NCBI GenBank assembly: GCA_013239625.1
Contig: MU053810.1
Span: 3,566,071 to 3,630,070, forward strand
Source: Lama guanicoe
Lineage: Eukaryota
Reading direction: 5' to 3'
Length of the DNA stretch: 64,000 nt
The translations under genes and the position numbers were made by a program. Positions 5,961 through 63,700 of this stretch are shown in pieces (positions within the stretch are counted from its first letter, which is position 1; every line of letters starts with the position of its first letter). Under the pieces are notes generated by a model. The model was not told where the DNA came from. It ran no database searches and worked only from the letters and a program-made list of their open reading frames with translations.

Positions 5961-6829
5961 CAATAGAAATAGAAAAAGGAAAAGGACTCTTTCTATGCTT
6001 CTTCTGTCTCTGGGTCTTTTAATTAGTCTATAATATAGAATCAATGTATACATTTTAATTGTTTGTTGTTATTATGAATAAAATACTTTATTCTCTTCCT
6101 AATTCAAACACTATGTGAATAGCATGTGCTCCCTTTCAAATAAAAAAATAACATAAATTTTCTTTATGAGTCCCTTGATAGATTTTTTTTTTTGGCAACT
6201 GTCAATTGCCTTTGAGAAGGAAAAATAATTTTCCTACATCATCCTAAACACTATTAGTTCAGCCTGTGAGAACACTACCCAATGATAAACTAATAGAAGT
6301 AACAAATCAAATTTTAAGAATAAGGTTCAGGAAGCTGGAACAGGGTAGTACCACAGTGTGCTATCAACATAACTTTGAGCCAGTTTTACCAAAAACTGAA
6401 AGACAAAATCTGGGGACACGGTAATGACCAAACTTCTCTACAGCACTAAGGTTTGAACTGGCCAATGACATTTAATTTAACTTCTTGGGTAATTTGGCTC
6501 CCTGACCTGGGTGCTGTTCTTGAACTACACACCAAGAGAGAATGGCTGAGTGCAAAAATGCGTGCGGCACATGTGTGAATTTTTTAGAGCTGCTCCCAGC
6601 TGGATTACACTAGAAGTGTGAGCCTGGCAGAAAGCACAACACATTCACAGATGCTCCATGAACAGCCAGAGTGGTGCCCCTTGTTTAGACAAGGATGCTA
6701 TTTTTAATGCTTAACACAAATGCAAAGCTTTGACTCTGCGAGATCAGAAAGTAGTTTTTCATTTTGATGGGACCTCAATAGCATACTCTGTGCCTTCTCA
6801 GGAAATCACAGTTTAGAAACTAGGAATGT

Positions 6830-7549: not shown

Positions 7550-8421
7550 TGGCCTAGGACCGCTGTCTCCTCCAGGCTCTGGCAGATGCCCTTAATTAAG
7601 ACCTATTTTATGGGGACCAATAGATACATTTTTTAAAAACGGTCAGATCAAAGATCCTCCTCTCCCGTACTTCCCCACCACCTCAGCACAGGAAAGCTAT
7701 GTGACAGAATGGGATTACAATCTGGGGCTAAAGTAGAAATCCTGACTCCTTTCCTTGAAGATTTTCAGGCCCTAGAGTACCTTTGGGGAGAAGGGCAGAG
7801 GGTGGGCTTCAGCACACATTGGGACCCTCGGGGGACCGGAAGCAGAGGAGAGCACTGGTCCTTCTCTTCCACCCAGGAAGGGAGGATTCAGGCCAGAAAG
7901 GACACAGGGACCCTTCATATGAGTGCAGCGTGGCTGATGGATGCCAAGCTCTCCAGGGTTCCCCCCAATACCCCTTTAAGGATGCAAGTAGATGTCCTTT
8001 CCTCCATGGGCCAAATTGGAATTATGAGTGGGGATAATAAATATTTCTCCCCATAATAAAATGGGCAGGCATGGTTTTAATTTAGATCAAGGAGAGTCAA
8101 GTGAGATCAAGAAAGACTCTCCTCTCAGTGAGAATTACTCACAATGAAAACAGTTCTCGCAAAAATACTCAAGATGTGGCTTTTAAGCAGATGCCTAATT
8201 AAAGTCAGGCTTCCATATTGTCCATGCGTGTGCTGGAAGGAATTAGAAGGGGCACATGCAGTGGAAAAATAGGAGGTTCAAGACAGAAAACATAGGAAAG
8301 TGTAGCACAGTACTCCAGCGAGATTGACAGTCATGATTCCATAACTGGTCATGAATGATTTATTTTCAGAACAAGTGAATGAGAGATTGAGTTGAAATTT
8401 ATGTTTCTAAAAGGAACCAGA

Positions 8422-14382: not shown

Positions 14383-16421
14383 CTTTTTAGTCAGGTTACA
14401 GTGTTGTGTTCATTTCCGTGTGCAGCACAGTTATTCAGTTATACATACATGTATATATATTGTTTTCCATATTCTTTTTTACTATAGGCTATTACAAGGT
14501 ATTTAATGTAATTCCCTGTGCTATACAGTAGGACCTTGTTGTTTATCTATTTTATATTTAGTGGTTAATATCTGCAAATCCCAAACTCCCAATTTATCCC
14601 TCCATTCCCCTCTTCCCCCCAGTAACCATAAGTTTGTTTTCTATGTCTGTGAGTCTGTTTCTGTTTTTTAAATAAGTTCATTTGTGTCTTTTTCTTTTTT
14701 TTTAGATTCCACATATAAGTGCTATCGTAGGGTTGGTTTGTTTTTTTGTTTTTTTTTGGCTGGCCCAGGCCTCAGAAAGAGGCTGCTTTATTGGAAGCTA
14801 TTCTGACATCATTTTTCAGACTGCCTTGCAGTTTTGGGACCAGGGATGGGAGTTGTCTTGTAACTATGGGGTCGGGGTAACGGTCTCCCACACCCTGGGC
14901 TCAGTTGAGGGTGCTCCTGCCAGTGGCAGATGTGGTCCTAATGGAGTAGGCCTCGAGGGCCCCGGGCCCTCCGGCACTGGAGAATCTCAGGGCATTGCTG
15001 CCCATGGTTCCCCGAAAGGTCAGCCGACTGCCAGCACCGCCGGTGGAATTCACCACAGGGATGTTCACGGTTTCCACTCCATCTCCGGTCAACCTGCTCT
15101 CCTCGCCCTCCAGCAGCTTGCGGTAGGTGGCGATCTCGATGTCCAGGGCCAGCTTGATATTCATCAACTCCTGGTACTCCTGGAGCTGCCGGGCCATGGC
15201 CTGCTTGGCTTGTTGCAGGGCAGCCTCCAGCTCTTCCTGCTTGGCGCGTGCCTCTTGAGTGCCAGCTCCCCACGCTCCTCAGCCTCAGCGATGGCAGCCT
15301 CCAAATTGGCACGCTGGTTCTCGATGCTGTCGATCTCCGCCTGCAGCCCCTGGACGGCCGGGTTCATCTCCGCAATCTCATTTCCGGTATTCCGGAGTTC
15401 ATCCCCCTGCTTCCCAGCCTGGGCCTGGAGGGTCTTAAACTTGGTCTTGTACATGGTCTCGGCCTCGGCCCGGCTGCGGTTGGCGATCTCCTCGTACTGG
15501 GCCTTGACCTCAGCGATGATGCCATCCAGGTCCAGGGAGCGGCTGTTGTCCACGGACGTGTCTGAGACCTCGGACTGCAGCTCTTTCAACTCCTCCTGGT
15601 AGAGAGCCCTGAGGAAGTTGATCTCGTCATTCAAGGCATCCACCTTGGCCTCCAATTCCACCTTATTCATGTAGGCAACATCTGCATCCTTCTTCAACAC
15701 CGCGATCTGATTCTCGGCAGCCGTGCGACGGTTACTTTCATCTTCGTACTTACTCTTGAAGTCGTCCACGACTTCCTGCATGTTCCGAAGCTCCACCTCC
15801 AGGCGGCCCCCATCCAGCTGTATTGTCTCAAGCTGCTTCCGCAGGCCGGCAATGCGGGCCTCAAAGATGCCCGGGAGGCGGCAGCTCTCGGTCGACTTCT
15901 GCTCCTGCCGCAGCGCCCACGTGGCCTCCAGCAGCTTGTTCTGCTGCGCCAGGAACCGGACCTTGTTGATGAAGGAGGCGAGCTTGTTGATGAGAGTCTT
16001 CATCTGCTCGCGCTCCTCCTGGCGCACCTGCTGGATGGAGACGTCGACGTCCACCTGCAGCCGAGTCAGCAGGCTCTGATTGATGGCGACCTCGCGGATG
16101 CCAGCGCCCACGGGGCCCCGGTAGGATGAGCACATGGCCACGCGTGGCTGCGAGGTGCCCAGGCCGTAGAGGCGGCGGCTGCTGCTGCTACCGAAGCCGC
16201 TGGGGCTCATGGAGCTCAGGGGCACCTGGGTGCCACGCCCTGGCAAGGCGGCGGAGTAGGAGCTGAAGTGGAAGGACATGCTGGCTGGGCTGGGCTGGGC
16301 TGGGCTGAACGGCGGGCGACAGTGGGCTGAACTCCATATGGTATTTATCTTTATCTTTCTGGCTTACTTCGCTTACTGTGACAATTTCCAGGTCCATCCA
16401 TGGTGCTGCAGATGGCATTAT
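14383..16421 (-). mobile_element. Young L1 3' end split into ~14383-14730 and ~16335-16421 by the KRT7 retrocopy
   Basis: TTTAGATTCCACATATAAGTG... stops at ~14730 and resumes as CATATGGTATTTATCTTTATCTTTCTGGCTTACTTC at ~16336, colinear with the uninterrupted L1 at 62335-62400. Confidence 0.85.
14733..16335 (-). pseudogene. KRT7: Keratin 7 processed pseudogene (ATG 16279 to stop 14901, one frameshift)
   Basis: KRT7-type head (MSFHFSS...RGTQVPLSS...[17 protein letters not shown]), rod, and KRT7-type tail ([21 protein letters not shown]...AYSIRT). Intronless; 1-nt deletion at ~15253; 12-nt deletion in linker L12 ([11 protein letters not shown]); AATAAA at 14787-14792 (minus); A-rich tail ~14734-14758. 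Confidence 0.95.
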
Positions 16422-36359: not shown

Positions 36360-38640
36360 CCATGCATTTATTTGTTCCTTTAACAAGTATTTATTGATGG
36401 TCTCCTTGCTTCTTGATGCTGGGCTGTGCACTGGGCATGGCTGTGGTGAGCCAGGCCAGCCTGGTGCCTGTGCTCACAGAGTGCCCCTCAGTTAAGGGAG
36501 GAAGACATCAGTCACACGATCATACCAATCACTGTAAAACTGAAACCACACTAGATGATATTTGATTGTAGGGACACTTGACTTTGAGCCATAAAAGAAG
36601 TCTTAACTAAGGAAGTGACAATTCCAAACAGAGAGAACAGCATTAGCAAAGGCCCTGTGGCATGAAGTAAAATGACCTGAAAGGCCACCGTGGCATCTAT
36701 CTGAAGAAGCAGGACAAAGAGTTTTATCTTTTCTTAAAAAAAAAAAATTCAAGTACAGTTGATTATACAATATCACATTAATTTCAAGAATTTCATCTTT
36801 ATTCTTAGAGCAGTGGACGCTGTGGAAGGGTTTTAAGCAGAAGAATGGCATTCTCAGAACTACATTTCCAAAAGATCATCACCCTGGCTTCTGAGTGGAG
36901 GAGAGGGGGAAACTGTGGTTTCTGGGAGATCAGTGCAGTGAGCTAGGTAGTTTTAGGAAGAGGCGACCAAAGTCATGTAGACAGGAGGTACCGTGGCTTG
37001 GGTTAAGGTAGAGAATGGATTTGAGATATTTAGGAGATACAATCAACAGCACCAGATGTTAGAATGAATATGAGTGAGGGAGTAAACCTTCCTACATGGC
37101 TGGTGGGAATGCAGTTTGGTGCAGCCACTGTGGAAAACACTATGGAGATTTCTCGAAACACTAGGAATAGACTTACCATATGGCCCAGGAATCCCACTCC
37201 CGGGCATATATCCAGAAGGAACTGTATTTCAAAAAACACCTGCACCCCAATGTTCATAGCAACACTATTTACAATAGCCAAGACATGGAAACAGCCTAAA
37301 TGTCCATCGACAGATGACTGGATAAAGAAGATGTGGCATATTTATTCAATGGAATACTACTCAGCCATAAAAATCAACAACATAATGTCACTTGTAGCAA
37401 CATGGTTGTCCCTGGAGAATGTCATTCTAAATGAAGTGAGCCAGAAAGAGAAAGAAAAATACCATATGAGATCGCTCATATGTAGAATCTAAAAAAGAAA
37501 AAGACAAATGAACAAAAATACAAAACAGAAACAGACTCATAGATATAGAATACAAACTTGTGGTTGCCAGGGGTTGGGGAGGAACAAACTGAGAGTTCGA
37601 AATTTGTAGATACTGACAGGTTATATATAGAATAGATAAACAAGATTATACTGTATAGCACAGGGAAACATATACAAGATCTTGTGGTAGCTCACAGTGA
37701 AAAAGAATGTGACAATGAATATATGTATGTTCATGTATAACTGAAAAATTCTGCGACTAGGAAAAATCAGACACACCATTGTAAACTGACTATAACTCAA
37801 TAAAATAAAATAAAATAAATATGTGAGTGAGGGAGAGAAGGGAGGTTAAGAGAGATTCCTAGACACCTGGCTTATACAACAGGAAAGATGGAAGTGCCAT
37901 TTGCTGAGATAGGGAAGTAGATGAGGACCTTGGACTGGTGGATGAGAAGATCATGAATTTAATTCTGGACCCGTACACGTACCTTTGAGACATTCACATG
38001 GAGATGATGTGTTGGCAGGTGGATAAATGGGTCTGAGGCTATGATGAAATGTCTGGTCTAGAGATACGCATTTGTAAGTCATCTGAGAATATTTGTGATA
38101 GATCAGTTCATGCAGGAAGAGAACACAGAGTTCAAGAAGAGAGGGGGACTGGCACTGTGTGGTGAATAGTTAATGGCTGAGTATAAGAAGATGAGTGTGT
38201 GAAGGAGAGGTGGCAGCCAGAGATGAAAGAAGACAAGAAGAGTCCTGCATCACCCAAGCCCAGGAAAGACTTCATTTCAAACAATGAGACTGACGAGCAG
38301 TGTCAGATACTGCTGTGTGATGGGGTCTGAGAGCTGTGATGTGTCCTCTGGATCTAGGGACACAAAGGTCATGTTGACCCTAGCAAGACTGGTTTTGATG
38401 GAGAAGTGAGTGGACTCCAGAAGGAGGCATTGGGGAAATATGTGGAAAATGGCAGGAGTGGGGTGGGCAGTGAATACAGAAAATTCAAGTGCATTGGCTA
38501 TGACGGGACAGCTGGAGAGATGGTTGAGTGGGCATAAGAGGCTGAGTGCATGGTCCTTGGCTGTGACAATCGGATTCAGCTTAGAGAGAGATTCTGCTTG
38601 AGGGGAAAGTTACTAAAGAGTGTAATGTTCCTGAGGAGAA
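36360..38640 (-). mobile_element. L2 element interrupted by a young L1
   Basis: L2 3' signature CATTTATTTGTTCCTTTAACAAGTATTTATTGA; AGCAAAGGCCCTGTGG; GAAGGGTTTTAAGCAG; resumes after ~37833 with GATGGAAGTGCCATTTGCTGAGATAGGGAA. Confidence 0.75.
37083..37818 (+). mobile_element. 5'-truncated young L1 inserted in L2
   Basis: ORF2p C-terminus TCTPMFIATLFTIAKTWKQPKCPSTDDWIKKMW; (AAAAT)n tail; TSD TGAGTGAGGGAG on both sides. Confidence 0.92.
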
Positions 38641-39420: not shown

Positions 39421-39969
39421 ATGTCTGGGATGACATAGACATACGAGTAATATCCAATATCTCACAGCTGCCTTTAAACTCCTGAGTGACACCTGATAAA
39501 CAAAAGCCACATATAAGCTAAACAGACAGCATTTACTGTACTACTACCAGATTAGATGGTAAATGCTTTATCACTCAGTGTCATTACAAAATATTTTTTA
39601 GACAAACCTTCATTGATATCTACCATATTTCAAGTGATGTCTTGTATGCTAGATATATAAAAGGACTAAGGAAATAAGGGCCTTGCACTCAGTGTCATAG
39701 AACCTGATGGTAAATATAGACATATAATCATAAAAGCACAAAAAAAAAAGGCCATAGATGCCAAATTAGGAGTCTGTACAGATACAGTAGTATGCAACAA
39801 CCTGGAGAATAGTCATTGCAATAAACAGGGTGGAAGTGTCCGAAAGCATGGGATGAGCTGTGTCCTTGGGAGCGTAAAAGAGCTCACCTGTCTTCACAAT
39901 TCCATTCATCACTGGATTCACATACTTGATTCTTTCAAAGTAAATCTGACCAACACCTTTGCCATTCAC

Positions 39970-40232
39970 TAGGGATCGCTCTCTGGCAGGGACGGGGCCA
40001 TGGAGTTTCCATTGGTTGGGGAACCGCCCAGCTTTAGTTTTTCCAGATATTCGGCATGCATGGGCTTGTGGCACTGGAGAACCTTGATCGCAGGCCGCCT
40101 GCCGCTGCTTGGTCCCCGCCGCCGCCGCCTCCACCTGCGAGGTGCTCCGAGGTGCTTGGGGGAGAAAGGGCCACGGCGAGGGGCGGGGAGAGAGGCGCCT
40201 CAGCCCGCAAGCCCTTGGAGCTGGGTTGGCTT
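39970..40232 (-). pseudogene. Probable retrocopy fragment of an unidentified gene (may extend to ~39770)
   Basis: CpG/GGC-repeat-rich leader running without intron into a coding-like stretch AIKVLQCHKPMHAEYLEKLKLGGSPTNGNSMAPSLPESDP*; sharp compositional edges against AT-rich repeat DNA. No clear poly(A) or TSD; parent not recognised. Confidence 0.55.
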
Positions 40233-42649
40233 TCTCTTCTGAACAATCTCAGACTTACTTTTTTGCTTAGGTCTTATTTTCTAATCCTGCTTCAATTTAA
40301 GGATAGAACATTCCCCATGTCCTTGGCGTCGTTCTAACTATAGAACCCAGGAATGGACCCAGTGCTCCAGGAAAAGTTTGGCAAATATCACATGTAAATG
40401 GAGGACGGCCTCGCTGTCCCTCCAGGCTCTTGTTTTTGCAGCCTAACCCTGGGTGATGGTTTAAAAGCTGGTGTTAGGACTGACCCCAGCTTCTCTGTTT
40501 TCATTGCTGACTCCTGTTTAGACGTTCTCGCCTGTAACCAGTCACTTTTCCTCTTCTATTTGTGTAGTTCATTTCCCTCTCCTGAAGGTACCACCCTGCA
40601 CTTATCTTCAGAGAACTTAAAAAAGAATTCTGACCACTTCTCTAATTTAGTAAGGTTATTTTAAATTTTGCTCTTCATCAGCAGGCTGACAGTGGCCTTC
40701 CTGCTCCTCGGTGAGGAAGTGATTCATGTGTTCTCAGTTTCCTCCAGGCCAGTGCTGTGTTCCAGGGCATCTGTTTGCAAGCGTTTTCAGCCTGCACTGC
40801 TATCTGCTACTCCGTGGCTTCTATAGGGGGTGCCTTGATCATCTTTCTTCTGGCTTTGATCAGTGTTAAGAGAATTAATCCCTTGGTGTTTCAACGCTTA
40901 GGTAAAACTTTTGTAGATGGTAACATTGAAGAGGGCTATTTCTAAGTTAACACATGCAACAAGGACGTAATCTTTTAGACTGAAAATCTGCACTTTAGTA
41001 TTTGTTAAGTTTTTGTATATACTGTATACCTCAGCCCCCCTCCACCCCAGAAGCATAGAAGCCTGTGACATGTCTGGTTCTAAGTTTTAACCCAGCAATC
41101 GCATAGAGCAAGGGCAACATCAAGGATAGATTGAAAGAGGCAGAAATGCTGGAGAGGATACACCTCAGCGTGTACAAACCCTCCCTCAGGAACAGGTCAT
41201 CTCTTCCTTGTCTGAGCTACGATGGATGGTACTTTATTTCTTTTCCTTTTGATTCCTTTGTAAGTGCTGTTACAAACATTTGCATCTAAATCTTGTTTCA
41301 CCCATGAATCTATAGGCCTGCTGAGGAAAGGGATGGGGGCTAATTTATCTTTATTTCACTCACAGCATCTTACATAATGTCTTACAACAGCCAGTGCTCA
41401 ATAAATATTTGTTGACTGAGTGAACAATGAAAGAACACATACAATTTAGAAGAGTTCAGATCCAAGCTGGCTTTTCTTTGTGGAAAAGTAATTTGATTTT
41501 AATCAAATTCTTTCTTTTTTCCTATTAGAAATTTTAATTGATTTAAAGAAATGGTAAAAAAAAAAAAAGACTAGGAAAAATCAATCTAAAATCTAAAAAT
41601 AAAGATGCTTTTGTAGAAAACAGGAAATTCCTGTGGATTTCCTTTAAAAAGCAGTCATATCAATTTTCATAAGCAAATATAAGAGGAAGTCATGTGTTCA
41701 CCTGCCCCTTCCAAATCTGGACAAAATGGTTGGAAGAGTCCAGCTGGCCGCTCCAACAGTTCCCTATGATAGCAAATCAGAGAGACCCTGGGCCATGTTA
41801 GACAGCGCTAAACAACACGATTATGAGCAGAAAAAGCATATGCACCAAGTATTTTTGGATAAAGCACACATTAAAAATGAACAAAGCAGTTTAGGAAAAA
41901 TTAGAATGAATTAAACATGTAAATCGGATGTTTTGTTATACTGTCACTACCCATGAGGAATTATCTAGACCGGGTGAAGAAAGCTATTGTTTGCGATAAT
42001 GATTATTGTAGGTAATATGAATTCCTGTTAATAAACAGCCCTTCATGTGCCAGGAAGTCTACTGCACTGGGCCCAAAAGAGATGTAGTAGCAGCGAGGAT
42101 AATCATGTTTACAGCCTGGCATGTTCTCTACAGAATTTATAAAAAGCCTTAGCTAATGTGAGATGAATCGTCAATAGTTTGATGAGAAAAAAATGGCAAC
42201 ATGGAAGAAATACTCATCTGCTCAACTCTCTATTTGTAGAGAGTTTGCTACATTAACTAAAGGTCAGCCTCTGGGTTGGAGCTGCAAATGTTACATGAAG
42301 GCAGAGTAAGGGAAGAAGAAATAAAGATACATTGATTCACAGCCTCCTGCAGGACCTCTAGGCAGGAGGCGCTGCCTATTTTCATGTACAAGCTCAGCAG
42401 GACCCAGTCCTGAACTTCTCCAGCCAGATCCGGAGGAAAGCAACAACCTGAGCCCATTGTCCGGTGGGGTCCGGGATGATTCCTGCTATTACAGACCCTG
42501 CAGGCGGAGAGAGAAATTTGGAAACCAAGGTGCCCATGGAGGTGCAAAACACCTCCATCCCAGTGAAGAGTTGGACCAGCTCAGAGAACATCAACACTAA
42601 TAAAATATAGACCTTTCCCAATACTAAATGCTACTATTGTTAACCGAAA

Positions 42650-42880: not shown

Positions 42881-43213
42881 TGCAATCCATGGAAGACTGG
42901 GCTGCACCTCGGTCCTTTGGCATTGGAGCCCTGACATAAACCCCACACTGCTTGGCAGAAAACTTGGGACCATTTTGAACCAGGCCCCTTTATCTTTTCC
43001 CAAAATGTGCTTGATGGCAGAGTCATCCTGCAAGATGACCTGCAGAGAAATGGGTTCCAGGAGCAAAAAAAGCGGGGAATGCTGCAAATGGAAATCCCCC
43101 TTGGAGAATCCCATTTTACAGCAGCTCTGGGAAGTCTTGCATTACAGAAACACCATCTAACTCAGTGTTTCTTAAACTGATTTGAATACAGAACCCTTTT
43201 TGTTCACATAAAA

Positions 43214-43691
43214 CCTATTAATAACTATGGGAATTTGTATTTCTGCAGAACGTGTCTTAGAGAATGGTGACTCAGAACAGTTCCTAAGTTCCTCTCTCAA
43301 GAACGGTCTCTTTTTGGACTCCTCTGGCCCAGCTGTTCTTGCTCTTGTGTCTTTTTGGACATCACCCTGCTTGAATAAAGTTGGATTTTGCTGCATTCTT
43401 CTGGATCTCTCTAAAGGGGTCAGTTTCCAGCCCCAAACCCATTCAGATCCCATACAGCCTATTAATAACTATGGGAATTTGTATTTCTGCAGAACGTGTC
43501 TTAAGAGAATGGTGACTCAGAACAGTTCTTAAGTTCCTCTCTCAAGAACGGTCTCTTTTTGGACTCCTTTGGCCCAGCTGTTCTTGCTCTCGTGTCTTTT
43601 TGGATATCACCCTGCTTGAATAAAGCTGGATTTTGCTGCATTCTCTCTAAAGGGGTCAGTTTCCAGCCCCAAACCCATTCAGATCCCATAC
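43214..43691. repeat. Tandem duplication, two copies, period 244 bp
   Basis: Copies start CCTATTAATAACTATGGG at 43214 and 43458. By eye they differ by 5 C/T substitutions, a 1-nt indel and a 9-nt indel. Confidence 0.97.
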
Positions 43692-47400: not shown

Positions 47401-48165
47401 AAATCTGAAAGGAGTACAAATAAGTTGTTAAACATATCTGTTCAACTTTATGTCTTTAAGAAGAATCTGAAGCAAGTGTGACAAGTATGACAAGCGTTAA
47501 CATCCATTTAAGCTGGATGGTTTGATTATAGCTGTTAAATGAATTTCACTCGGTGTCTTTCTGATGGTTTGAAATACCGTGTGGGGCAAATATATACATT
47601 GGTTTGCTCAACATCGACAGCAGCCTCCTCCTGCTGTGCCTCCCTGAGCTCAGAGACTGGAAAGTGAAATACTAGACTTTCTTCCAGTTAGTGTCCCAGG
47701 TATGATTTTGGTTCCAACATCACAGCTTCATTGGAACTGACATAATTGAGGAGTGAAGCAGGAATGAGGCACCTATTTGTCAGGATGGCCACAGAGGTGG
47801 TGTGGTTTGGAGACTGGCAGCTGTGTTGCAGGTTCCCCAGTTTAGCAGGGATGGCATGTTTTGCAACCAGCAGCCTCTTTCAGACGATGGTGCAGGGAGG
47901 GTAAAGCCAAGCAGAGCACCAGCAGGGACAGAGCTCCAGAAATGTGTAAATCTATACACCTGCTAAGCTGAGCCATTCCCACAGACTATGCAGGGCTGGG
48001 AGATATTCAGGTTCTGACTGGGTGGAATGCAGAGACCTTGCTGAACATTCTGAGCAGTGGGCAGCGATCCCAGAAGGGTCACATGTTAGCAGCAGAATTA
48101 AAAGAGTCCTTGATTAAAGACTACTCTAGACATACCTGGAAAAAGCTTATAAACAAGCCTCAAAG

Positions 48166-48437
48166 ATAAGACTCACACACCCCAATGCTAATAGCAGCAC
48201 TATTTACAACAGCCAAGATATGGAAACAACCCAAATGTCCATGAACAGATGACTGGATAAAGAAGATGTGGTACATATATACAATGGAACACTACTCAGC
48301 CATAAAAAAGAATAAAATAATGCCATTTGCAGCAACATGGATGGTCCTGAAGATTGTCATTCTAAGTGAAGTGGGCTGGAAGGAGAAATAAAAATGTCAT
48401 ATGATATCAGTTATATGTGGAATCTAAAAAAAAAAAA
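48166..48437 (+). mobile_element. Short young L1 fragment ending at the internal A tract
   Basis: CACCCCAATG...TGGAAACAACCCAAATGTCCA...ATGTGGAATCT(A)n; outer TSD AACAAGCCTCAAAG at 48152-48165 and 49822-49835. Confidence 0.88.
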
Positions 48438-49789
48438 TTTCTTTTTGGAGGTACAGAGAGTTTACTCAAAGTCCAATACAGACTGGCCCAGCTGCCTTCT
48501 ACAATGTGCCAGGAAAAAAGGGCCTACAGAAAAGGTAGAAGTTGTTATAAAATTGCTTTAATTCAGTTCTCTCCACATTACAAGGCAGCGGCGGGCAGTG
48601 GACTCTGCCTGCTCCCCTTACAACGCTGAGCCTGTAACCACTGTTATCAAAATATACATCTGTCACCATAAAAAACCGCGTGTGCTGCCCCTTGTGACTT
48701 ACAAGAGGTATAAAAAATTATAAATATTTACACCCTTATTCCACGCGACATGGAAACTCGGGGCCCAGACCCTGAGGGAGGGCTGGCCAGCATGGGGCCT
48801 GTGCGCGGGAGCCCCTTGGACCCATGAGTGCAGGGCGAGGCAGTTAAGACCGGAGGGCGGCTGCTCCAGCTCCTGGGGTCCCAGCATTAGAGGCAGAAAA
48901 AAAAAAAGAAACAAAACTTTGGTCCAAAATTTGCAGGAAGAAAGAAACCCTGAAAGTTTAAGAGCACTCGTCCTCCCTGACCAAGGACAGTTGGGTGTGA
49001 GTAAGGCATTTGGGGGCCACCCTGAGGCTGGATCCTGCCCTGCAACTTCGTTACAAGGAATAAAATAACAGTATACAAAGGTCATACTTGCTGGAGAAAC
49101 TTTAGATTACACTCATGCCATTTTTATCTTGCTATATAAAAGGTACCTAAAACTATTTCTTTTGCATATAACTGAGAAAGTTTAGGATATTTGGTCAACT
49201 GGAAATATTGCTAGGCACAGACGCCTGCAGCTGCATCAAAGCGTAATACAAAGGTTCCGGTGAAAACAAAGCTGAAGAAGCGCCAGGGACATGCCCTGGG
49301 GTCTCGCCCTGGGACTTGGGAGGAGAATCACATACTTGATTAAAGGATCCGGGGTGTCGGCCAGGTCTGGCCACTCACCGCCTGCTGCCACACCAGGCAC
49401 ATGATCCCAGAGGAGGCTGGCCCCTTGGGCCCCAAAAGCCCTCCATGCCTGCTACCCCAAGAAGGCCCTGCCAGAGCAGCGGGTTTAAGGCACAAGAGAG
49501 CCGCATGGAGGTTTGGGAGCGTGCACCCTGCAGCTGCAGAAGGCACGGGCGAGGGGTGGGGAGCAGGGGTGCCGTCCTTGCCTGCACCCCATCTCCCCTA
49601 GGTGAGCAAGTGAATTAGATTTAATTTTTTAAAAACAGGTAAACTGATTTCTCTTAAAAAAATAAAATCTCTGGTCTTTTAAGGTCACTTCAGCTGCTTT
49701 TTAAAGTGGCTTTTTTCTGGAATGACAGAAGTTGTGGCCAGGCACCCGGCAGGCTGGTCCTGGGGGCCTAGATGGTGGACTTGGAGAAG
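48438..49789 (-). pseudogene. PTBP1: 5'-truncated PTBP1 retrocopy: last 6 codons plus whole 3'UTR
   Basis: Minus strand begins TTC TCC AAG TCC ACC ATC TAG (FSKSTI*, the PTBP1 C-terminus; stop 49768-49770). Then blocks I recognise from the PTBP1 3'UTR: AAAAGCCACTTTAAAAAGCAGCTGAAGTGACCTT, GAGAAATCAGTTTACCTGTTTTT, CTGTGCCTAGCAATATTTCCAGTTGACCAAATAT, AAGGGTGTAAATATTTATAATTTTTTATACCT. AGTAAA signal at 48461-48466 and a short A tail. Confidence 0.92.
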
Positions 49790-50803
49790 TAAAAAACTTT
49801 TTAAAAAATTTTCTTTAATACAACAAGCCTCAAAGGGTCAAACTGACTTGCGAATAAGTGTCTGTCAATCAAAACAAAGTTCAACACCCTTTACAAGAAG
49901 AAAAAAAATTCAGATACTCAACAACATGAAATTCACAATATCCAGCACCCAATAAACAAGTCAGTCAATATAGAAAAAAACAAAAAGATCCAGAAATGCG
50001 AGCAATGACAGAATCAGCACAAAAAGCCTTTAAGACAACTATTATAAATATGTTCAAGTATCTAAGGGAAAGCAGGAACACAATGAGGAGAAAAAAGGAT
50101 ATTTAAAAAGAACAAAATGGAACTTTCCAGAGATGAAAAATACAATATTCAAAATAAAAATTTTATTGGATGGGATCAGTAGCAGATTAGACGTGTGACG
50201 GGAAAAAGATCAGTGAACTTAAAAATGATGCAAAAGAAACCACCCAAACTGAAGCAAACAAAGGGAAAAAAAGGGTGAAAATAATGAACTGAGCCTTGGC
50301 ACCCTGTGGGACAATAAGTACCAAGCGGTCCAGGTTCATGTAATTGGGGTGCAGAAGGAGGGGAGAAAGGAGAAAACAGAAGTCATCTGAAGAAAAAGGT
50401 GTTTGAGGAAATAATAGCCCCCAAATTTTCAAATTAAATGAAAAACAAATCATAACCAAATTGTTGAGAAACGGAGATAAACATAATATTAAAAGCAGTG
50501 CAAAGAGAAGGGGAGGGGAGACATTACACACGGGAGGAAAAAAGAATAGTCGCTGACTTCGAAGCAATACAAGCTGGAAGACAGAGGAGCAACATTTCCA
50601 AAGTGATGAAACGGGAAAAAAGTTAACTTAGGGTTCTCTATCTAGCAAAAATATCCTTCAAAGAGACAGGCAAAAATAAATAAATCTTCAGGCAAACAGA
50701 GAAACTGGGAAAATCATGGGTAGCATAGTTGCACGATAAAAAATATGAAAGAAAGTCCATTCTTCAGGCCATTGAAAAGTGATCTCTAATAAAAACTCAG
50801 ATC

Positions 50804-53385
50804 AAGAGCAGAGCTGCACGCGCACGCGGGAAAGGGAAGGGCGCGGGGTCTAGAAAGGGGGGGGTTAAGTGCCCTGGTCCCCCCTGGTTTCCCTCGACTG
50901 GGATGGAATAAGGGGAGGAAATGATCGAGACGGCGCGGGGAAGGAGCCGCTTCTGATGCCAGCCCCGCCGCCGCCGCTCAAAGGTGAGTGGGACGGAGGC
51001 GGCGGCCCCACGGGGCAGCCGCACCGAGAGGCCGCCCCCGGGGAGCTCCGCGGCGGGACGCGGCGTGGGCCGGGCCCGCGCGCGCACTCGGCGGGGTCCC
51101 CGGCTTCTGGGACCGGCAAGGACAGCCCCGGGGCTGCATCCAGCCCTCCGGGCGGCCGGTCGCAGCAGCAACGAGCGGGCGGCCCCCAGGCGCAGTCGCA
51201 CGGGGACGCCCGCTTGTCCGATCCCCACAGGCGAGCAGCTCCCCCGGCCGTGGGGAAGGAACGACTGGGCCCCCCTGCCCCCTCCTCGACCCCGCAATGG
51301 CTATCAGCCCCACCGACCCCCTGGGGGAGGTCGGGGGAAGAGGAGAAACAGCTGTAATGTAGGGGGAGGTGGTGGAGGCTTCAAACACCCAGCCTTCAAG
51401 AGGTGCAGGCCGGTTAATTCAGACCGTGACTCTGTCTTGCCTTCCAGCTTCCTGGAGGGCAGTATCTTTGATCCGCTGAACCTGAATAGCCTCCTGGATG
51501 AGGAAGTGAGCCGCGCACTCAATGCAGAGACCCCTAAGTCATCCCCACTTCCGGCCAAGGGGCGAGATCCAGTGGAGATCCTCATCCCCAAAGATATTAC
51601 TGACCCTCTGTCTGAATACTTGCACTGATGAGGCCCAAGTAGTTCTTGCTTCACCACTCAAGACTGGTCGGAAGCGGCATAGACACTGGGGACAGCGGCA
51701 GCAGCAGAGGCAGGCAACTGGAGGGAACGATAGCCACTCTGTGCTTCCCACAGCCCCCCTCACTCCCTCACTCCCTCACTCCGTGGGGAGGGCACCACAC
51801 AGCAGCAGCGGCATAGGGACCAGGACTGGGACGTATGAACTCAACACAGCCGTCAGCTGCAGGGATGAGGTCGTGTCACCCCTTCCATCTGCCCTGCAGG
51901 GTCCCTCAGGCTCCCTTTCAGCCCCTCCAGCTGTCTCAGTTACCTGTGCACCCCCATCTTCCTCCTCACGACATCGCAAACATCGCAGGACTTCCAGCAT
52001 GTCAGAGGCAGGGGCTCAGGGTGGAGGCCAGGGTCCCAAGGTAAAGGGCCGAGGGAGTGGGGGAGGCCGCCACCAGGTCCACCCACTCCCTGCAGCAGGT
52101 TTCAAAAAGCAACAGCGCAAGTTCCAGTACGGGAATTACTGCAAGTACTGTGGGTACCGCAGTCCTTCTTGTGAGGATGGGCGCCTTCAGGTGTTGAAGC
52201 CTGAGTGGTTTCGGGGTCGGGACGTCCTAGATCTGGGCAGCAATGTGGGCCACCTGACCCTGAGCATTGCCTGTAAGTGGGGCCCATCCCGCATGGTGGG
52301 CCTGGATATTGATGCCCGGCTTATCCACTCTGCCCGCCAAAACATCCGACACTACCTGTCCAAAGAGCTGTGTCTGCCACCCCGGACTTCTGAAGGGGAC
52401 CCAGGAGCAGAGAGTGAGGAAGGGACCACAACCATCCGAAAGAGGAGCTGCTTCCCAGCCTCACTGTCAGCCAGTCGGGGTCCCATTGCTGCACCCAAGT
52501 GCCCTTGATTGGAGCTGACACATCCGTCTTCCCCAACAATGTTGTCTTCCTCACAGGTAACTATGTGCTGGATCGAGATGAGCTGGTGGAGGCCCAAACA
52601 CCCGAGTACGATGTGGTGCTCTGCCTCAACCTCACCAAGTGGGTGCATCTGAACTCGGGAGATGAGGGGCTCAAGCGTATGTTTCGCCAGATCTCCTGGC
52701 ACCTACGTCCTGAGGGCATCCTGGTCCTGGAGCCCCAGCCTTGGTCATCTTACGGCAAGAGAAAGACCCTTACGGAAACAATCTACAAGAACTACTATTG
52801 AATCCAGCTGAAGCCAGAGCAGTTCAGTTCCTACCTGACATCCCCTGAGGTGGGCTTCTCCAGCTATGAGCTTGTGGCCACACCCCACAACACCTCCAAC
52901 GGCTTCCAGCGTCCTGTGTTCCTGTTCCACAAGGCCCGTTCGCCCAGCCACTAAGTGTCCTCCTGAACAGAAAGTGTGCAGAAGCTGCCTGCTGCTCCTA
53001 AGGACCTGGGGGAAGAGGAAAGTATCCCAAGGTCTTTCCTTTCTGGCTCCAAAAATAGTTTCCTTTCTTGGATCTGCAAAGAAAGCTTTTCCCGTGTTGC
53101 TGCCCCAGCCTCTTCCCTACATCTCTGGCACCTAAGCAAGCCCAGCTGTGCTGGAGTTACCATCATCTTCGTCTCCCCTAGCCCGCTGGGCTGGATGGCA
53201 TGAACTGTTTGCTGACCTCCATTCTCCTAGGGCAAGGGAGGTGGGGGGGTATCAAGTTCTCTAGCCTTTTTCTCCTGTTCTCCCAGCTGTCCCGCACTGG
53301 GAAAGGGGGTTGGGTTTGGAATGTGAGAACAGCACAATAAACTTGATGTTGAGGGCAGTGCCCCCCCCAAAACCCCCCAAAACAA
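50804..53385 (+). pseudogene. MEPCE: Full-length MEPCE (7SK methylphosphate capping enzyme, BCDIN3) processed pseudogene
   Basis: ATG 50921 to TAA 52952-52954. Peptides [90 protein letters not shown]. Intronless; several frameshifts (first at codon ~6); TGA at 52799-52801; AATAAA 53336-53341; TSD AAAAACTCAGATC at 50791-50803 and 53386-53398. Confidence 0.97.
50810..51330. promoter_or_regulatory. CpG island carried in by the MEPCE retrocopy
   Basis: Very high GC and dense CpG (GCACGCGCACGCGGG, GGCCCGCGCGCGCACTCGGCGG) in an AT-rich L1 context. Promoter activity is not shown by sequence alone. Confidence 0.6.
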
Positions 53386-53755
53386 AAAAACTCAGATCTA
53401 CGTAAAGGAATGAAGAATACTGGAACTAGTAAATATGTGAGCAAGTTTTAGTAACTTTTATCCTCATTTTAAAAATAATTGACGATGCAAAACAAAAGTA
53501 ACGAGAATGTATTTGTGGATTTCACCACGTGGAGAAATAAAGTGGATGATGATAACAGCACAACAGACAGGAGGGGCTTCAGCAGAATTGCACTCTGTGA
53601 AGTGGCACATACCACTCTCTGAAGGTGGATGGTGACAAGGGAAAGAAGGATATTATGACCTCTTGAGCGGTGATGACACTAGGGAGCCAGGCAGAGGTCT
53701 GTGGAACTCTTGAGTACTACTTCCGCAACTTTTCTGTACGTCTAAAATTATTTCA

Positions 53756-53902
53756 GGGGGGAAGGTACAGCTCAAGTGGTAGAGTGCGTGCTTAACATGC
53801 ACCAGGTCCTGGGTTCAATCCCCAGTACCTTCTCTAAAGATAGATTAATAAATAAACTTTAACATCCCCTCCCCGCCAAAACAAACCTACGAAAAATAAA
53901 AC
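53756..53902 (+). mobile_element. tRNA-Ala-derived SINE (vic-1 type) inside an old L1 3' fragment
   Basis: GGGGGGAAGGTACAGCTCAAGTGGTAGAGTGCGTGCTTAACATGCACCAGGTCCTGGGTTCAATCCCCAGTACC; TSD AAAAT(T/A)ATTTCA. Confidence 0.9.
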
Positions 53903-60719: not shown

Positions 60720-63700
60720 AGTTCAGTTTATACATATACACATCTTCTTTATCTTTATTCATCTGTTGATGGACATTTAGGTTGTTTCCATGTCTCGGCT
60801 ATTGTAATTAATGCTGCTATGAACGTAGTGGTGCAGATAGCTTTACAAATTAATGTTTTCATTTCCTTTCAGTATAGTCCCAGAAAAGTAATTGCTGGAT
60901 AATTTGGTAATTCTAGTTTTAATTTTTGGAGGATACTCCATACTGTTTTCCATAGTGGTTGTACCAATTTACAATCCACCAACAGTATGAAAGTGCTCCT
61001 TCACTCCACATTCAAGCCAGCATTTATCTATCTTTTTGTGATGGCCATTATAATAGGTATGAAATCATACCCCATAGTTTTAATTTACATTTTCCTAGTG
61101 ACTAGCAATATTGAGTATCTTTTCATGTACCTGTTGGTCCTTCCTACATTTTCTTCAGAGAAATACTTATTTAGGTCTTTTGCCTATTTTAATAGGGATA
61201 TTTGGGGGTTTTGTTATTAAGTTATATGAATTCTTTATATATTTTGGCTCTTAACCCCTTATCAGATATACAAATTGCAAATATTTTTCCCATTCCATAG
61301 GTTGTCTTTTCACCTTGCGGATGGTTTCCCTTTCTGTGCAGAAGCTTTTTAGTTTGGTATAGTCCCACTTATTTAATTTTGATTTTGTTGTTCACGTAAT
61401 ATACCAAAAAAATCATTACCAAGACCCATGTCATGGAGTTTTATTCCTGTTTCCTGTCTTCTTCTAGGACTTTCATGGTTTCAGGTCTTACATTTAAGCT
61501 TTAACCCGTTTTGAGTTAATTTTTGTGAGTGATATAAGATATGGGTCCAGTTTCATTCTTTCATATGTGAATATCCAGTTATCCCAGCACCATTCATTGA
61601 AGAGACTGTGCTTTCCCCACTGAGTATCCTTGTCTCTCTCATCAAATATTAGTTTATCATATACGCCTACATTTATTTCTGCACTCTCGATTCTGTTCAA
61701 TTGGGCTATTTGCCAATACTATACAGTTTTGATGACTGTAGCTTTACAATATAGCTGGATATCAGAAAATGTGATACCTCCTGCTTTGTTCTTCTTGCTT
61801 CAGATTTCTCTGGCTATTTGGGGTCTTTTGTGGTTAGATATACATTTTAGGACTATTTTTCCTACTTCTGCAAAAAATGCCATTGGAATCTTCATAAAGA
61901 TTGCACTGAATCTATAAATGGCTTTGGTAGTATTGAACATGTTACCAATATTCATTCTTCCAATCCAATAAATGGAACACAGGATACATTTCCATTTATT
62001 TATGTTTTCTTTAATTTCTTTCATCACTTTTTTTTAACATTTTTTACTGATTTATAATCATTTTGTAATGTTGTGTCAAATTCCATTGTAGAGCACAATT
62101 TTTCAGTTATACATGAACATGTATATATTCATTGTCACATTTTTTTCTCTGTGAGCTACCATAAAATCTTGTACATATTTCCCTGTGGTATACAGTATAA
62201 TCTTGTTTATCTATTCTACAATTTTGAAATCCCAGTCTATCTCTTCCTACCCCTCGCCCCCTTGGCAACCACAAGTTTATATTCTATGCCTGTGAGTCTA
62301 TTTCTGTTTTGTATTTATGCTTTGTTTGTTTGTTTTAGATTCCACATATGAGTGATCTCATATGGTATTTTTCTTTCTCTTTCTGGCTTACTTCACTTAG
62401 AATGACATTCTCCAGGAGCATCCATGTTGCTGCAAATGGCATTATGTTGTCAGTTTTTATGGCTGAATAGTATTCCATTGTATAAATATACCACTTCTTC
62501 TTTATCCAGTCATCTGTTGATGGACATTTAGGCTGTTTCCATGTCTTGGCTATTGTAAATAGTGCTGCTATGAACATCGGGGTGTAGGTGTCATCCTGAA
62601 GTAGGGTTCCTTCTGGATATAAGCCCAGGAGTGGGATTCCTGGGTCATATGGTAAGTCTATTCCTAGTCTTTTGCAAAATCTCCATAGTGTTTTCCACAG
62701 TGGCTGCACCAAACTGCATTCCCACCAGCAGTGGAGGAGGGTTCCCCTTTTCTCCACAGCCTCTCCAGCATTTGTCATTTGTTTCATCACTCGTTTTTAG
62801 TTTTCAGTATAGAGATCTTGCACTCCTTAGTTAAATTTATTCTAAGTATTTTGTTGTTTTTGATGATTTTGTAAATAAGATCAATTTGTTTACTTCTTTT
62901 ACAGAAATTTTGTTCTTAGTATATAGAAATGCTATTGATTTTTGTATGTTAATTTTGTATCCTGCAACTCTTCTGAATTCATTGATTAGGTCTAACAGAT
63001 TTTTTGAGTCTTTAGAATTTTTTATACATAAAATTATGTCATATGCAAATAGAGACAATTTTACTTCTTCCTTTCCAATTCTGATAACTTTTAGTTCTTT
63101 TTCTTACCTATTTGTTCTAGCTAGGACCTCCATACTATGTTGAATAGGAGTGATGAGAGTGGGACCCCTTGCCTTGATCTTAGAGAAAAAGCTCTCAACT
63201 TTCCACCACTGAGTATGTTAGCTGTAGACTTGTCATAATTTGCTTTTAAAATGTTCTTTCTATGCCTAATTTGTTAAGAGATTTTATAATAAATGGATGT
63301 TGAATTTTGTTAAATGCTTTCTCTCTGTCTATTAAAATGATCATATGCTTCTTTCACTGATTCTATTAATGTGATATATTGTATTGATTGATTAGTGTAT
63401 GTTGTACCATCCTTGCATCCTAAGGGTAGATCTCACTTGATCATAGTAAGTGATCTTTTAAATATGCTGCTGAATCTGGTTTGCTAGAAATGGATTGAGA
63501 GTTTTTGCACCTGTACCCAGCAGGGATATCGGCCTGTAGTTTTCTTATCTAGTAATGTCCTTTTCTGGTTTTGGTATCAGAATAATTCTGGCCTTGTAAA
63601 ATAAGTTTGCAAGTGTTTCCTCCTCTTCTATTTTTGAAAGATTTTGATAAGGATTCAGGTTAATTTTCCAAAATGTTTGGTAAAATTGACTAATGAAGCC

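Follow-up and report, generated by a model that had tools for sequence, protein, structure and literature searches.

A putative retrocopy-born CpG island and a probable bystander PTBP1 pseudogene between camelid PIP4K2A and ARMC3

If two unrelated retrocopies insert head to head, the promoter of one might come to drive an RNA that ends in the other. This question is raised by a South American camelid locus between PIP4K2A and ARMC3, where a MEPCE copy (plus strand) and a PTBP1 copy (minus strand) lie in one old repeat, with their 5' ends head to head and 1,014 bp apart. An earlier note had proposed that a CpG island in the MEPCE copy drives a leftward RNA of about 2.4 kb which ends in the PTBP1 3'UTR. 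We analysed the locus within a window of 64 kb of guanaco DNA, whose positions are used throughout, and found the whole head-to-head anatomy described in that note in place. Our analysis suggests that the pair is probably not a working transcription unit, but an orphan CpG island born from one retrocopy, with a PTBP1 fragment as bystander.

The plus-strand copy (50804..53369) joins four exons of its parent (on C8741), lacks the three introns and retains a piece of the Bin3 domain. Its coding part is broken by 10 indels, seven of which are not multiples of three (first frameshift at 50934, stop at 50954). A 13-bp target-site duplication (50791..50803, plus strand) recurs exactly at 53386-53398, and this right-hand repeat, together with a degenerate, C-rich A/C tail that follows the parent's poly(A) signal, occupies 53370..53398. 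That is, with intron loss, duplication and tail, and a broken frame, the copy is a processed MEPCE pseudogene. It is shared with dromedary; at position 50931, read by eye, dromedary has R, the guanaco stretch T and the parent M.

The minus-strand copy (48447..49789) is a 5'-truncated processed PTBP1 copy, consisting of the last seven codons, the whole long 3'UTR and a short A tail. From 49789 to 48446 it aligns at 92% identity with an intron-containing parent (L023, on C2899), in which the final coding stretch encodes RRM4 of PTBP1. In a search bearing on the PTBP1 copy in camels, a junction pattern matched no metagenome contig. The copy lies wholly inside the last exon of this parent and intron loss cannot be read from it; its processed origin is seen in the mRNA 3' end with A tail, the 5' truncation and a duplication of its own. 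The left target-site duplication, AAAAAATTTCTTT (48432..48444, plus strand), recurs with one extra T at 49803..49816 and is followed there by AA, forming a TTTT/AA-type site of what we take to be the L1 endonuclease consensus. Both minus-strand poly(A) signals pointed out previously are there: a proximal ATTAAA (48557..48562), with its downstream sequence kept, and a distal AGTAAA (48461..48466), which is AATAAA in the parent. Since two other PTBP1 copies (L012 and L019) end 11-16 nt past the ATTAAA, this is a real signal used by the parent. Over 190 nt, the one further full-length match (L013) does not differ from the parent and so gives no direction for the AATAAA/AGTAAA change.

Both copies reside in an old interspersed repeat, whose left part (47964..48151, plus strand) corresponds to an ORF1 region, presumably of an L1M-like family. 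This repeat continues as the spacer between the copies (49836..50790; 45% A on the plus strand, 41 other matches at 68-83% identity) and resumes beyond the MEPCE copy (53399..53575, plus strand), where 5 of 29 paralog loci align. None of the seven open frames of the spacer matched Pfam, leaving L1 ORF1 unconfirmed there. Paralogs are collinear across both insertion points, as in L053 (2151-1957 / 1950-941 / 921-743). Next to the left part, a short fragment that we take to be the end of an L1 ORF2 (48166..48437, plus strand) terminates in the A run that hosts the PTBP1 insertion. It is similar to longer L1 ends at 37034-37492 and 62335-62796, and the outer 14-bp duplication on its left (48152..48165) is repeated exactly at 49822..49835, both on the plus strand. 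The earlier note had not recorded this nested L1.

Since the target-site duplications are separate (13 bp for MEPCE, 13-14 bp for PTBP1 and 14 bp for the outer one) and the host repeat is collinear in its paralogs, the insertions were separate, and the two retrocopies are indeed unrelated, as had been assumed. A single-event L1-PTBP1 chimera was considered and rejected, as the two tails meet mid-way and a separate duplication flanks the PTBP1 copy. We propose that the short L1 would have landed in the old A-rich repeat, as one of three separate L1-driven insertions, that the 5'-truncated PTBP1 mRNA copy would then have entered the A run of this L1, and that the near full-length MEPCE mRNA copy would have inserted independently, 1 kb away. 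Non-CpG changes are alike in the PTBP1 copy (19/1,066) and the far part of the MEPCE copy (27/1,248) and give no order of insertion. Intron loss, A tail, target-site duplications, 5' truncation, frameshifts and A-rich older repeats as targets are common to L1-mediated processed pseudogenes. The mechanism does not differ here; the locus stands out by having three insertions within a single old repeat, nested or side by side.

The window contains five processed copies. In simulations with five copies in 64 kb, two copies lay no more than 1,014 bp apart in 31% of cases, and did so head to head in 8%; given this number of copies, the pair is unremarkable. Thus the adjacency of MEPCE and PTBP1 is not beyond chance, and nothing suggests selection for the pairing. 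The island is not at a known gene start: PIP4K2A exon 1 is ~112 kb and ARMC3 ~50 kb away. A crude exon scan over 304 kb, in which 150 of the 179 candidates were judged by eye and which would miss non-coding hosts, recognised no host exons between these two genes.

The CpG island brought by the MEPCE copy comprises 5'UTR and coding start (50804..51350). With 547 bp, a GC content of 0.74, a CpG observed/expected ratio of 0.82 and 11 CpG per 100 bp, it passes the usual thresholds for length and composition (500 bp, GC 55%, ratio 0.65), and the CpG-rich 5' end reported from 50804 onwards is present. The parent's island measures 2.7 kb, of which the copy carries only ~550 bp: the copy begins at L020:5056, and the parent island runs 2.2 kb further upstream. 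This uncopied part holds YY1, ZNF143, CRE and CCAAT-like motifs; a plus-strand YY1-like motif near 6687 and the first strong plus-strand donor of the parent, at 7555, are likewise outside the copy. Parent MEPCE has a zf-CW exon 16 kb upstream, on the other strand. Near it, a PWWP exon was absent from 13 matches and Pfam gave no PWWP; by its zf-CW domain, this gene is putatively ZCWPW1. In human, MEPCE and ZCWPW1 lie head to head, and the arrangement here is consistent with this. Inheritance of their bidirectional promoter is not supported, as the upstream 2.2 kb of the island, with the stretch towards the zf-CW (ZCWPW1-like) gene, was not copied.

On the branch leading to the copy, CpG transitions affected 2 of the 80 CpG bases of the island, versus 14/85 in the rest of the MEPCE copy (Fisher test: P=0.003) and 12/54 in the PTBP1 copy (P=0.0003), whose CpGs have decayed as in methylated DNA. 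The edge of CpG sparing coincides with the edge of the parent's own island. A/T-to-G/C changes are in excess in the island (10/109 versus 21/815, P=0.002), and all eight testable island changes are derived, as judged by seven outgroup proteins. Since the 600 bp adjoining the island combine a high rate of A/T-to-G/C changes (12/241) with normal CpG decay (6/27), GC bias alone fails to explain the spared CpGs. The repeat paralogs, only 60-67% identical to the spacer, are unfit for a GC-bias test beside the island.

A second MEPCE copy on another contig displays partial CpG sparing (10/85 versus 23/97, P=0.053) and an A/T-to-G/C excess in the same segment (10/109 versus 16/805), which could be an effect of sequence context. 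Two other copies in the window lost parental CpGs by transition (22/62 at 1-790 and 10/32 at 39780-40270). However, a keratin copy 35 kb away has trends like those of the island, with CpG loss at 13/138 bases (P=0.056 versus the island) and as low as 1/39 in one 520-bp part, A/T-to-G/C changes at 22/549 (P=0.03) and G/C-to-A/T changes at 15/726. By its substitutions the island looks germline-unmethylated, and the earlier idea of an island that is not fully methylated fits its CpG decay; the keratin control weakens this claim and the special status of the island.

In the reading that we favour, the MEPCE copy would have imported 550 bp from the downstream end of the CpG island of its parent. 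With its density of CpG and G+C, the imported piece may by itself withstand methylation and so would have become an orphan island, unmethylated in the germline. Judging from the general behaviour of CpG islands, its chromatin would probably be open or bivalent, with at most weak initiation. In mouse ES cells, high CpG and G+C alone were reported to keep promoterless inserts unmethylated and bivalent, without Pol II (Wachter et al. 2014, PMC4204011), and the island (11 CpG per 100 bp, 74% GC) exceeds the composition described for them. The mouse inserts were artificial and 1 kb long, whereas a natural 550-bp insert has here spent millions of years in the germline. PPP1R26P1, the source of CpG85 in RB1 (PMC3839921), is similar in that a retrocopy-borne CpG-rich stretch is described to keep its CpGs and may serve as promoter and first exon. 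There, however, the copy is intronic, its island derives from an internal exon that is methylated, and both imprinting and use as a promoter were shown; the MEPCE copy is intergenic and carries the tail of its parent's promoter island. The intergenic copies in the PPP1R26P1 paper are reported to have lost their CpGs.

The island might also be a real promoter that fires rightwards. Its plus strand contains a new near-consensus donor, AAG/GTGAGT (50981..50989), which owes its origin to a single A-to-G substitution at 50984 and is also present in dromedary, as seen from a 10-residue peptide in P0091; the earlier note had passed over this donor. A first exon of 100-180 nt would end at 50983/50984 and be spliced onward, either into a camelid-specific non-coding RNA or as an upstream first exon of the sperm/cilia gene ARMC3, which is on the plus strand like the MEPCE copy. 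We consider this unlikely. On a crude frequency matrix the donor reaches 8.2, where 8.7 is the maximum; the donors of the parent score lower (4.8-7.4), and no other site on either strand of the window attains 8. Of the 1,488 single changes possible in the island segment of the parent, just one yields such a donor, and this change happened; with ~25 changes in the island, however, its chance is roughly 2-6% by our own post hoc arithmetic. From ATG to donor the dromedary model has 21 codons, in phase 0, but it reads through the site with no splicing there, and in the guanaco stretch the TGA at 50954 ends the short frame. Island-derived residues were found in none of 15 camelid ARMC3 protein records, where a non-coding exon would escape notice, and the 21 matches to the MEPCE copy held no transcript-derived camelid protein beyond two camel gene models. 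A precedent is PPP1R26P1 as first exon in RB1 (PMC3839921). Retention of the donor in two lineages hints at its use, and any stable RNA would more likely run rightwards.

A longer chain of events is distinctly improbable. The retrocopy would have seeded a germline-unmethylated island ~25-30 million years ago, PRDM9-independent recombination would have followed, GC-biased gene conversion would have fixed the A-to-G change of the donor, and a camelid-specific rightward promoter and first exon towards ARMC3 would have arisen, with or without a divergent RNA ending in the PTBP1 3'UTR. PRDM9-independent hotspots resemble the locus in that an A/T-to-G/C excess is centred on an unmethylated island and fades over ~1 kb (Joseph et al. 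2024, PMC11161765). Here, however, there is a single locus with 10 events, and the local controls also lean towards GC: the hotspot-type peak has its like in the keratin copy and in the second MEPCE copy. The words camel, alpaca and retro are absent from the main text of that paper. Our literature search by title and start of abstract, with subscription papers mostly outside its scope, found nothing on this locus or on GC-biased conversion in retrocopy islands.

The leftward RNA of the earlier note would cross 1 kb of old repeat to reach the PTBP1 poly(A) sites, and would be stable and unspliced, 2.3-2.4 kb long, with the PTBP1 3'UTR in it. We judge it very improbable. Predicted lengths from 50850 fit (2,310 and 2,403 nt), the island looks unmethylated, the parent-used ATTAAA and its downstream sequence are kept, and words matching presumed miR-124 and miR-133 seeds persist at 49546, 49493 and 48925. 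Bidirectional promoters are reported to drive 11 of 230 human and 12 of 243 mouse retrocopies (Carelli et al. 2016, PMC4772013). However, the first canonical signal for a leftward RNA is an AATAAA (50162..50167, minus strand) with a U-rich downstream element (52% T in 50 nt), which sits ~700 nt from the island, ahead of the PTBP1 sequence; an ATTAAA (49814-49819) also precedes the copy. No minus-strand donor scoring at least 4 occurs between island and PTBP1 copy, the first being at 49378. Moreover, the divergent part of the parent promoter is missing, the PTBP1 CpGs decayed like methylated DNA, the distal signal is the weaker AGTAAA, and the pairing bears no sign of selection. In 14 RNA or presumed-RNA runs (of 24 runs), 0.13-0.18 of sampled words were found versus 0.116 expected from both parent genes, which speaks neither for nor against expression. 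The AATAAA at 50162 is a further feature missing from the earlier note.

Promoter direction is described as set by a U1/poly(A) rule (PMC11230626). Since antisense termination need not rely on poly(A) factors, as the same eLife paper also reports, the AATAAA argument is incomplete. Antisense transcripts make up 20% of the independent processed-pseudogene transcripts reported from human long reads (PMC8108447). Carelli et al. (PMC4772013) describe retrocopy promoters as inherited from the parent (~3%), as bidirectional promoters of head-to-head neighbours or as orphan CpG islands. In their head-to-head cases the promoter belongs to a live gene, whereas the donor here would be a dead retrocopy, and the inherited class, as described, requires parental sequence upstream of the start site, so that the MEPCE copy is not assignable to it. 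Under the orphan-island reading, a leftward RNA would end early and be degraded before the PTBP1 sequence, because no strong donor protects it and the AATAAA is met ~700 nt out; the PTBP1 fragment would be a methylated bystander. Thus the sequence argues against a joint RNA of MEPCE island and PTBP1 copy.

It is also highly unlikely that the island is methylated or inert and its CpG and GC signals reflect regional GC-biased gene conversion, small counts or misassigned direction in a three-sequence comparison, a reading for which the keratin and second MEPCE copies speak and against which stand the eight derived changes, the normal decay of the PTBP1 copy 1 kb off and of the far MEPCE part, and the CpG losses at 1-790 and 39780-40270.

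As it stands, the locus is one more pair of pseudogenes. The two-part RNA, if real, would be a curiosity, and the sequence speaks against it. What makes the locus useful is a natural CpG-island transplant, whose starting sequence is given by the parent and whose fate is legible base by base. If the new donor were used, a promoter and first exon would be in the course of being born near a sperm gene, and if the whole chain from seeded island to donor were true, the locus would hold a dated, base-by-base record of the birth of a promoter and exon without selection. Two copies of the same MEPCE segment already lean towards an unmethylated state and GC gain. Should many retrocopy islands behave in this way, new orphan islands and default recombination hotspots would arise to a measurable extent by retrocopying.

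The head-to-head retrocopy pair is confirmed. Its MEPCE member (50804–53369, plus strand) begins where the earlier note had placed it, lacks introns and aligns at 91–98% identity to four exons of its parent on contig C8741, with an exact 13-bp target-site duplication on both sides. The coding part carries 10 indels, starting with one at 50934, plus a stop codon at 50954; its sequence is that of a dead processed pseudogene. The PTBP1 member (48447–49789, minus strand) matches the last 7 codons and the long 3′UTR of its parent on C2899 at 92% identity, which bears out the minus-strand 3′UTR previously described with a 5′ end near 49789, and has a load of changes similar to that of the MEPCE copy. 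It landed in a short L1 fragment, at the fragment's A run, and its own 13–14-bp duplication ends at a TTTT/AA-type site. An outer 14-bp duplication encloses L1 fragment and PTBP1 copy together, and paralogs of the surrounding old repeat are collinear through both insertion points. Thus, three separate insertions entered one old A-rich element, and the two copies, each with its own duplication, are unrelated insertions as had been claimed. Both are ordinary processed pseudogenes. Another PTBP1 copy (L024:3033–3620, contig C5730) has an internal tandem duplication of ~280 bp at the 3′UTR start. A further PTBP1 match, L013 (C3175:1–649), opens its contig with the parental 3′ end, identical over the 190 nt compared, and is likely no copy but an overlap in the assembly.

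The dromedary gene model of the MEPCE copy (XP_031300351.1, P0091) has the first frameshift and private changes in common with the guanaco copy, so the insertion is older than the camel–alpaca split, 16–17 million years ago. Among 56 changes examined against dromedary, 35 were informative; a script called 16 shared, one of them wrongly by eye, and 19 private. With that split date, the insertion would be, very roughly, 25–30 million years old. At 53285 the copy misses ~120 nt of parental 3′UTR that are kept in a second, more diverged MEPCE retrocopy on C55225, a copy-specific junction for read assignment. In the parent, the intron 1 acceptor (L020:2056–2066) reads CTCAAG/GTAAC in the assembly, and both retrocopies imply an exon 2 start of GGTAAC; splicing at that AG shifts the frame and translation breaks there, probably through an assembly error or a rare allele in an essential gene.

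An exon located 150 kb along the contig matches alpaca ARMC3 at 100% identity and camel ARMC3 at 92%, which marks the genome as that of a South American camelid. ARMC3 starts ~50 kb right of the CpG island of the MEPCE copy (50804–51350) on the plus strand, and PIP4K2A exon 1 lies ~112 kb to its left on the minus strand. Scanning 304 kb for exons with a crude method (150 of 179 candidates judged by eye) recovered ARMC3 exons and no host gene around the pair, which is intergenic with respect to coding genes. In alpaca models, ARMC3 can also begin with another coding first exon, which lies 1.7 kb upstream of its island (L030:5768–5821, L030:7501–8100); multiple starts therefore exist for this gene already.

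The window contains five processed copies whose parents are spliced or which show mRNA ends. Besides the pair, these are a type II keratin copy (14800–16335, minus strand; nine parental exon pieces, a 398-aa open frame, CpG o/e 0.6–0.9), a spliced copy of a four-exon gene on C650 (34–761, minus strand, 82–93% identity) and a spliced copy of the 5′ end of a C5099 gene whose exons lie far apart (39780–40225, minus strand). A sixth candidate lacked a second genome match. When five copies were placed at random, neighbours as close as the observed pair (1,014 bp or less) arose in 31% of trials, and such neighbours in head-to-head orientation in 8%. The window also holds a tandem duplication of ~245 bp, seen by eye (43200–43690), a short interspersed element 81% similar to one near parent MEPCE (53756–53829; presumably a tRNA-derived SINE) and a GC-rich single-copy segment that matches nowhere else in the genome (57150–57560).

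We set the direction of MEPCE-copy changes with the parent and the second copy; substitution counts were low and entered several tests. On the branch of the MEPCE copy, CpG transitions affected 2 of 80 CpG bases in the island (50830–51300); the remaining MEPCE sequence had 14 of 85 affected (Fisher p=0.003), and the PTBP1 copy 12 of 54 (p=0.0003 against the island). Counted pairwise, 3 of 46 island CpGs had changed versus 15 of 54 elsewhere, with 5 and 4 other changes excluded. The boundary used falls at the parent's own island edge and so was not picked from the copy alone. A/T-to-G/C changes fell from 10/109 in the island to 12/241 in the adjoining 600 bp and 9/574 beyond; seven outgroup proteins confirmed the derived state of all eight testable island changes. 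The adjoining 600 bp combine GC bias with normal CpG decay (6/27), so the spared CpGs are better explained by low methylation than by conversion. The island is probably unmethylated in the germline, as far as substitution patterns can tell. The second MEPCE copy has the same A/T-to-G/C excess in its island segment (10/109 versus 16/805) and partial CpG sparing (10/85 versus 23/97), and the keratin copy combines little CpG decay (13/138) with an A/T-to-G/C excess (22/549). The effect may thus apply to CpG-dense copies in general, or may in part be regional. The copies at 34–761 and 39780–40225 decayed normally (22/62 and 10/32 CpGs). Sites at codon 4 and near 51248 were hit in both dromedary and guanaco, each lineage by an A/T-to-G/C change of its own.

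The earlier note placed human MEPCE head-to-head with ZCWPW1. An opposite-strand zf-CW exon 16 kb upstream of parent MEPCE fits this neighbour; a domain search found no PWWP exon near it. An inherited bidirectional promoter finds no support: the copy starts 117 nt before the ATG and holds only the last 550 bp of a ~2.7-kb parental island. The uncopied 2.2 kb contain YY1-, ZNF143-, CRE- and CCAAT-like motifs, all absent from the copied part, which has 3 GC boxes. For the divergent gene, the plus-strand YY1-like motif is 1.6 kb, and the first strong donor 2.5 kb, beyond the copied part. Lack of methylation does not by itself make an island a promoter: in PMC4204011, promoterless inserts with lower CpG and G+C than this island stayed unmethylated and bivalent, with no polymerase. 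Most unmethylated orphan islands nevertheless have some basal activity (PMC5927659).

That no working transcription unit exists at the pair is the most likely reading, which we modestly favour, with a small further chance that the island is simply inert. A rightward spliced RNA from the island is unlikely, though a better bet than a leftward one. An A-to-G change at 50984, common to dromedary, created the plus-strand donor AAG/GTGAGT, the sole donor scoring at least 8 on either strand of the window. Out of 1,488 single changes open to the parental segment, only this one would produce such a donor; the argument is post hoc, uses a crude matrix and carries a ~2–6% probability by chance. The shifted frame of the dromedary model stays open over the 21 codons that separate the ATG from this donor (50921–50983), whereas TGA at 50954 closes the guanaco frame. 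Island residues occur in 0 of 15 camelid ARMC3 protein records, and a protein search found no transcript-derived protein of the MEPCE copy among 21 hits. In 14 RNA or presumed-RNA runs, the share of sampled sequence words (0.13–0.18) came near the 0.116 that the two parental genes would produce by themselves, and it counts neither for nor against expression.

The proposed ~2.4-kb leftward RNA, joining the island to the PTBP1 3′UTR, appears improbable. The PTBP1 ATTAAA would be a credible end site given read-through, as two other PTBP1 copies terminate just past it. However, donors scoring at least 4 are absent leftward from the island to 49378, and the first canonical poly(A) signal, AATAAA (50167–50162) followed by 52% T, lies ~700 nt out, ahead of the PTBP1 sequence. 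If U1 and poly(A) sites set promoter direction, as laid out in PMC11230626 (which refers to Almada 2013), leftward RNA should end early. PMC11230626 also stresses Integrator-dependent termination.

PMC4772013 lists retrocopy promoters for every type proposed here, antisense pseudogene RNAs are common (78/396; PMC8108447), and 10.1101/192757 excluded pseudogene start sites. The literature, supplements aside (those of PMC11161765 could list camelids), yielded nothing on the MEPCE/PTBP1 locus. In its A/T-to-G/C gradient, the island is similar to the PRDM9-independent hotspots that PMC11161765 describes for hypomethylated islands. The island behaves as an orphan CpG island and is nearest in kind to PPP1R26P1 in RB1 (PMC3839921), although promoter use by the MEPCE-copy island is putative. 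The intergenic copies of that study lost their CpGs, whereas the intergenic MEPCE copy has kept them.
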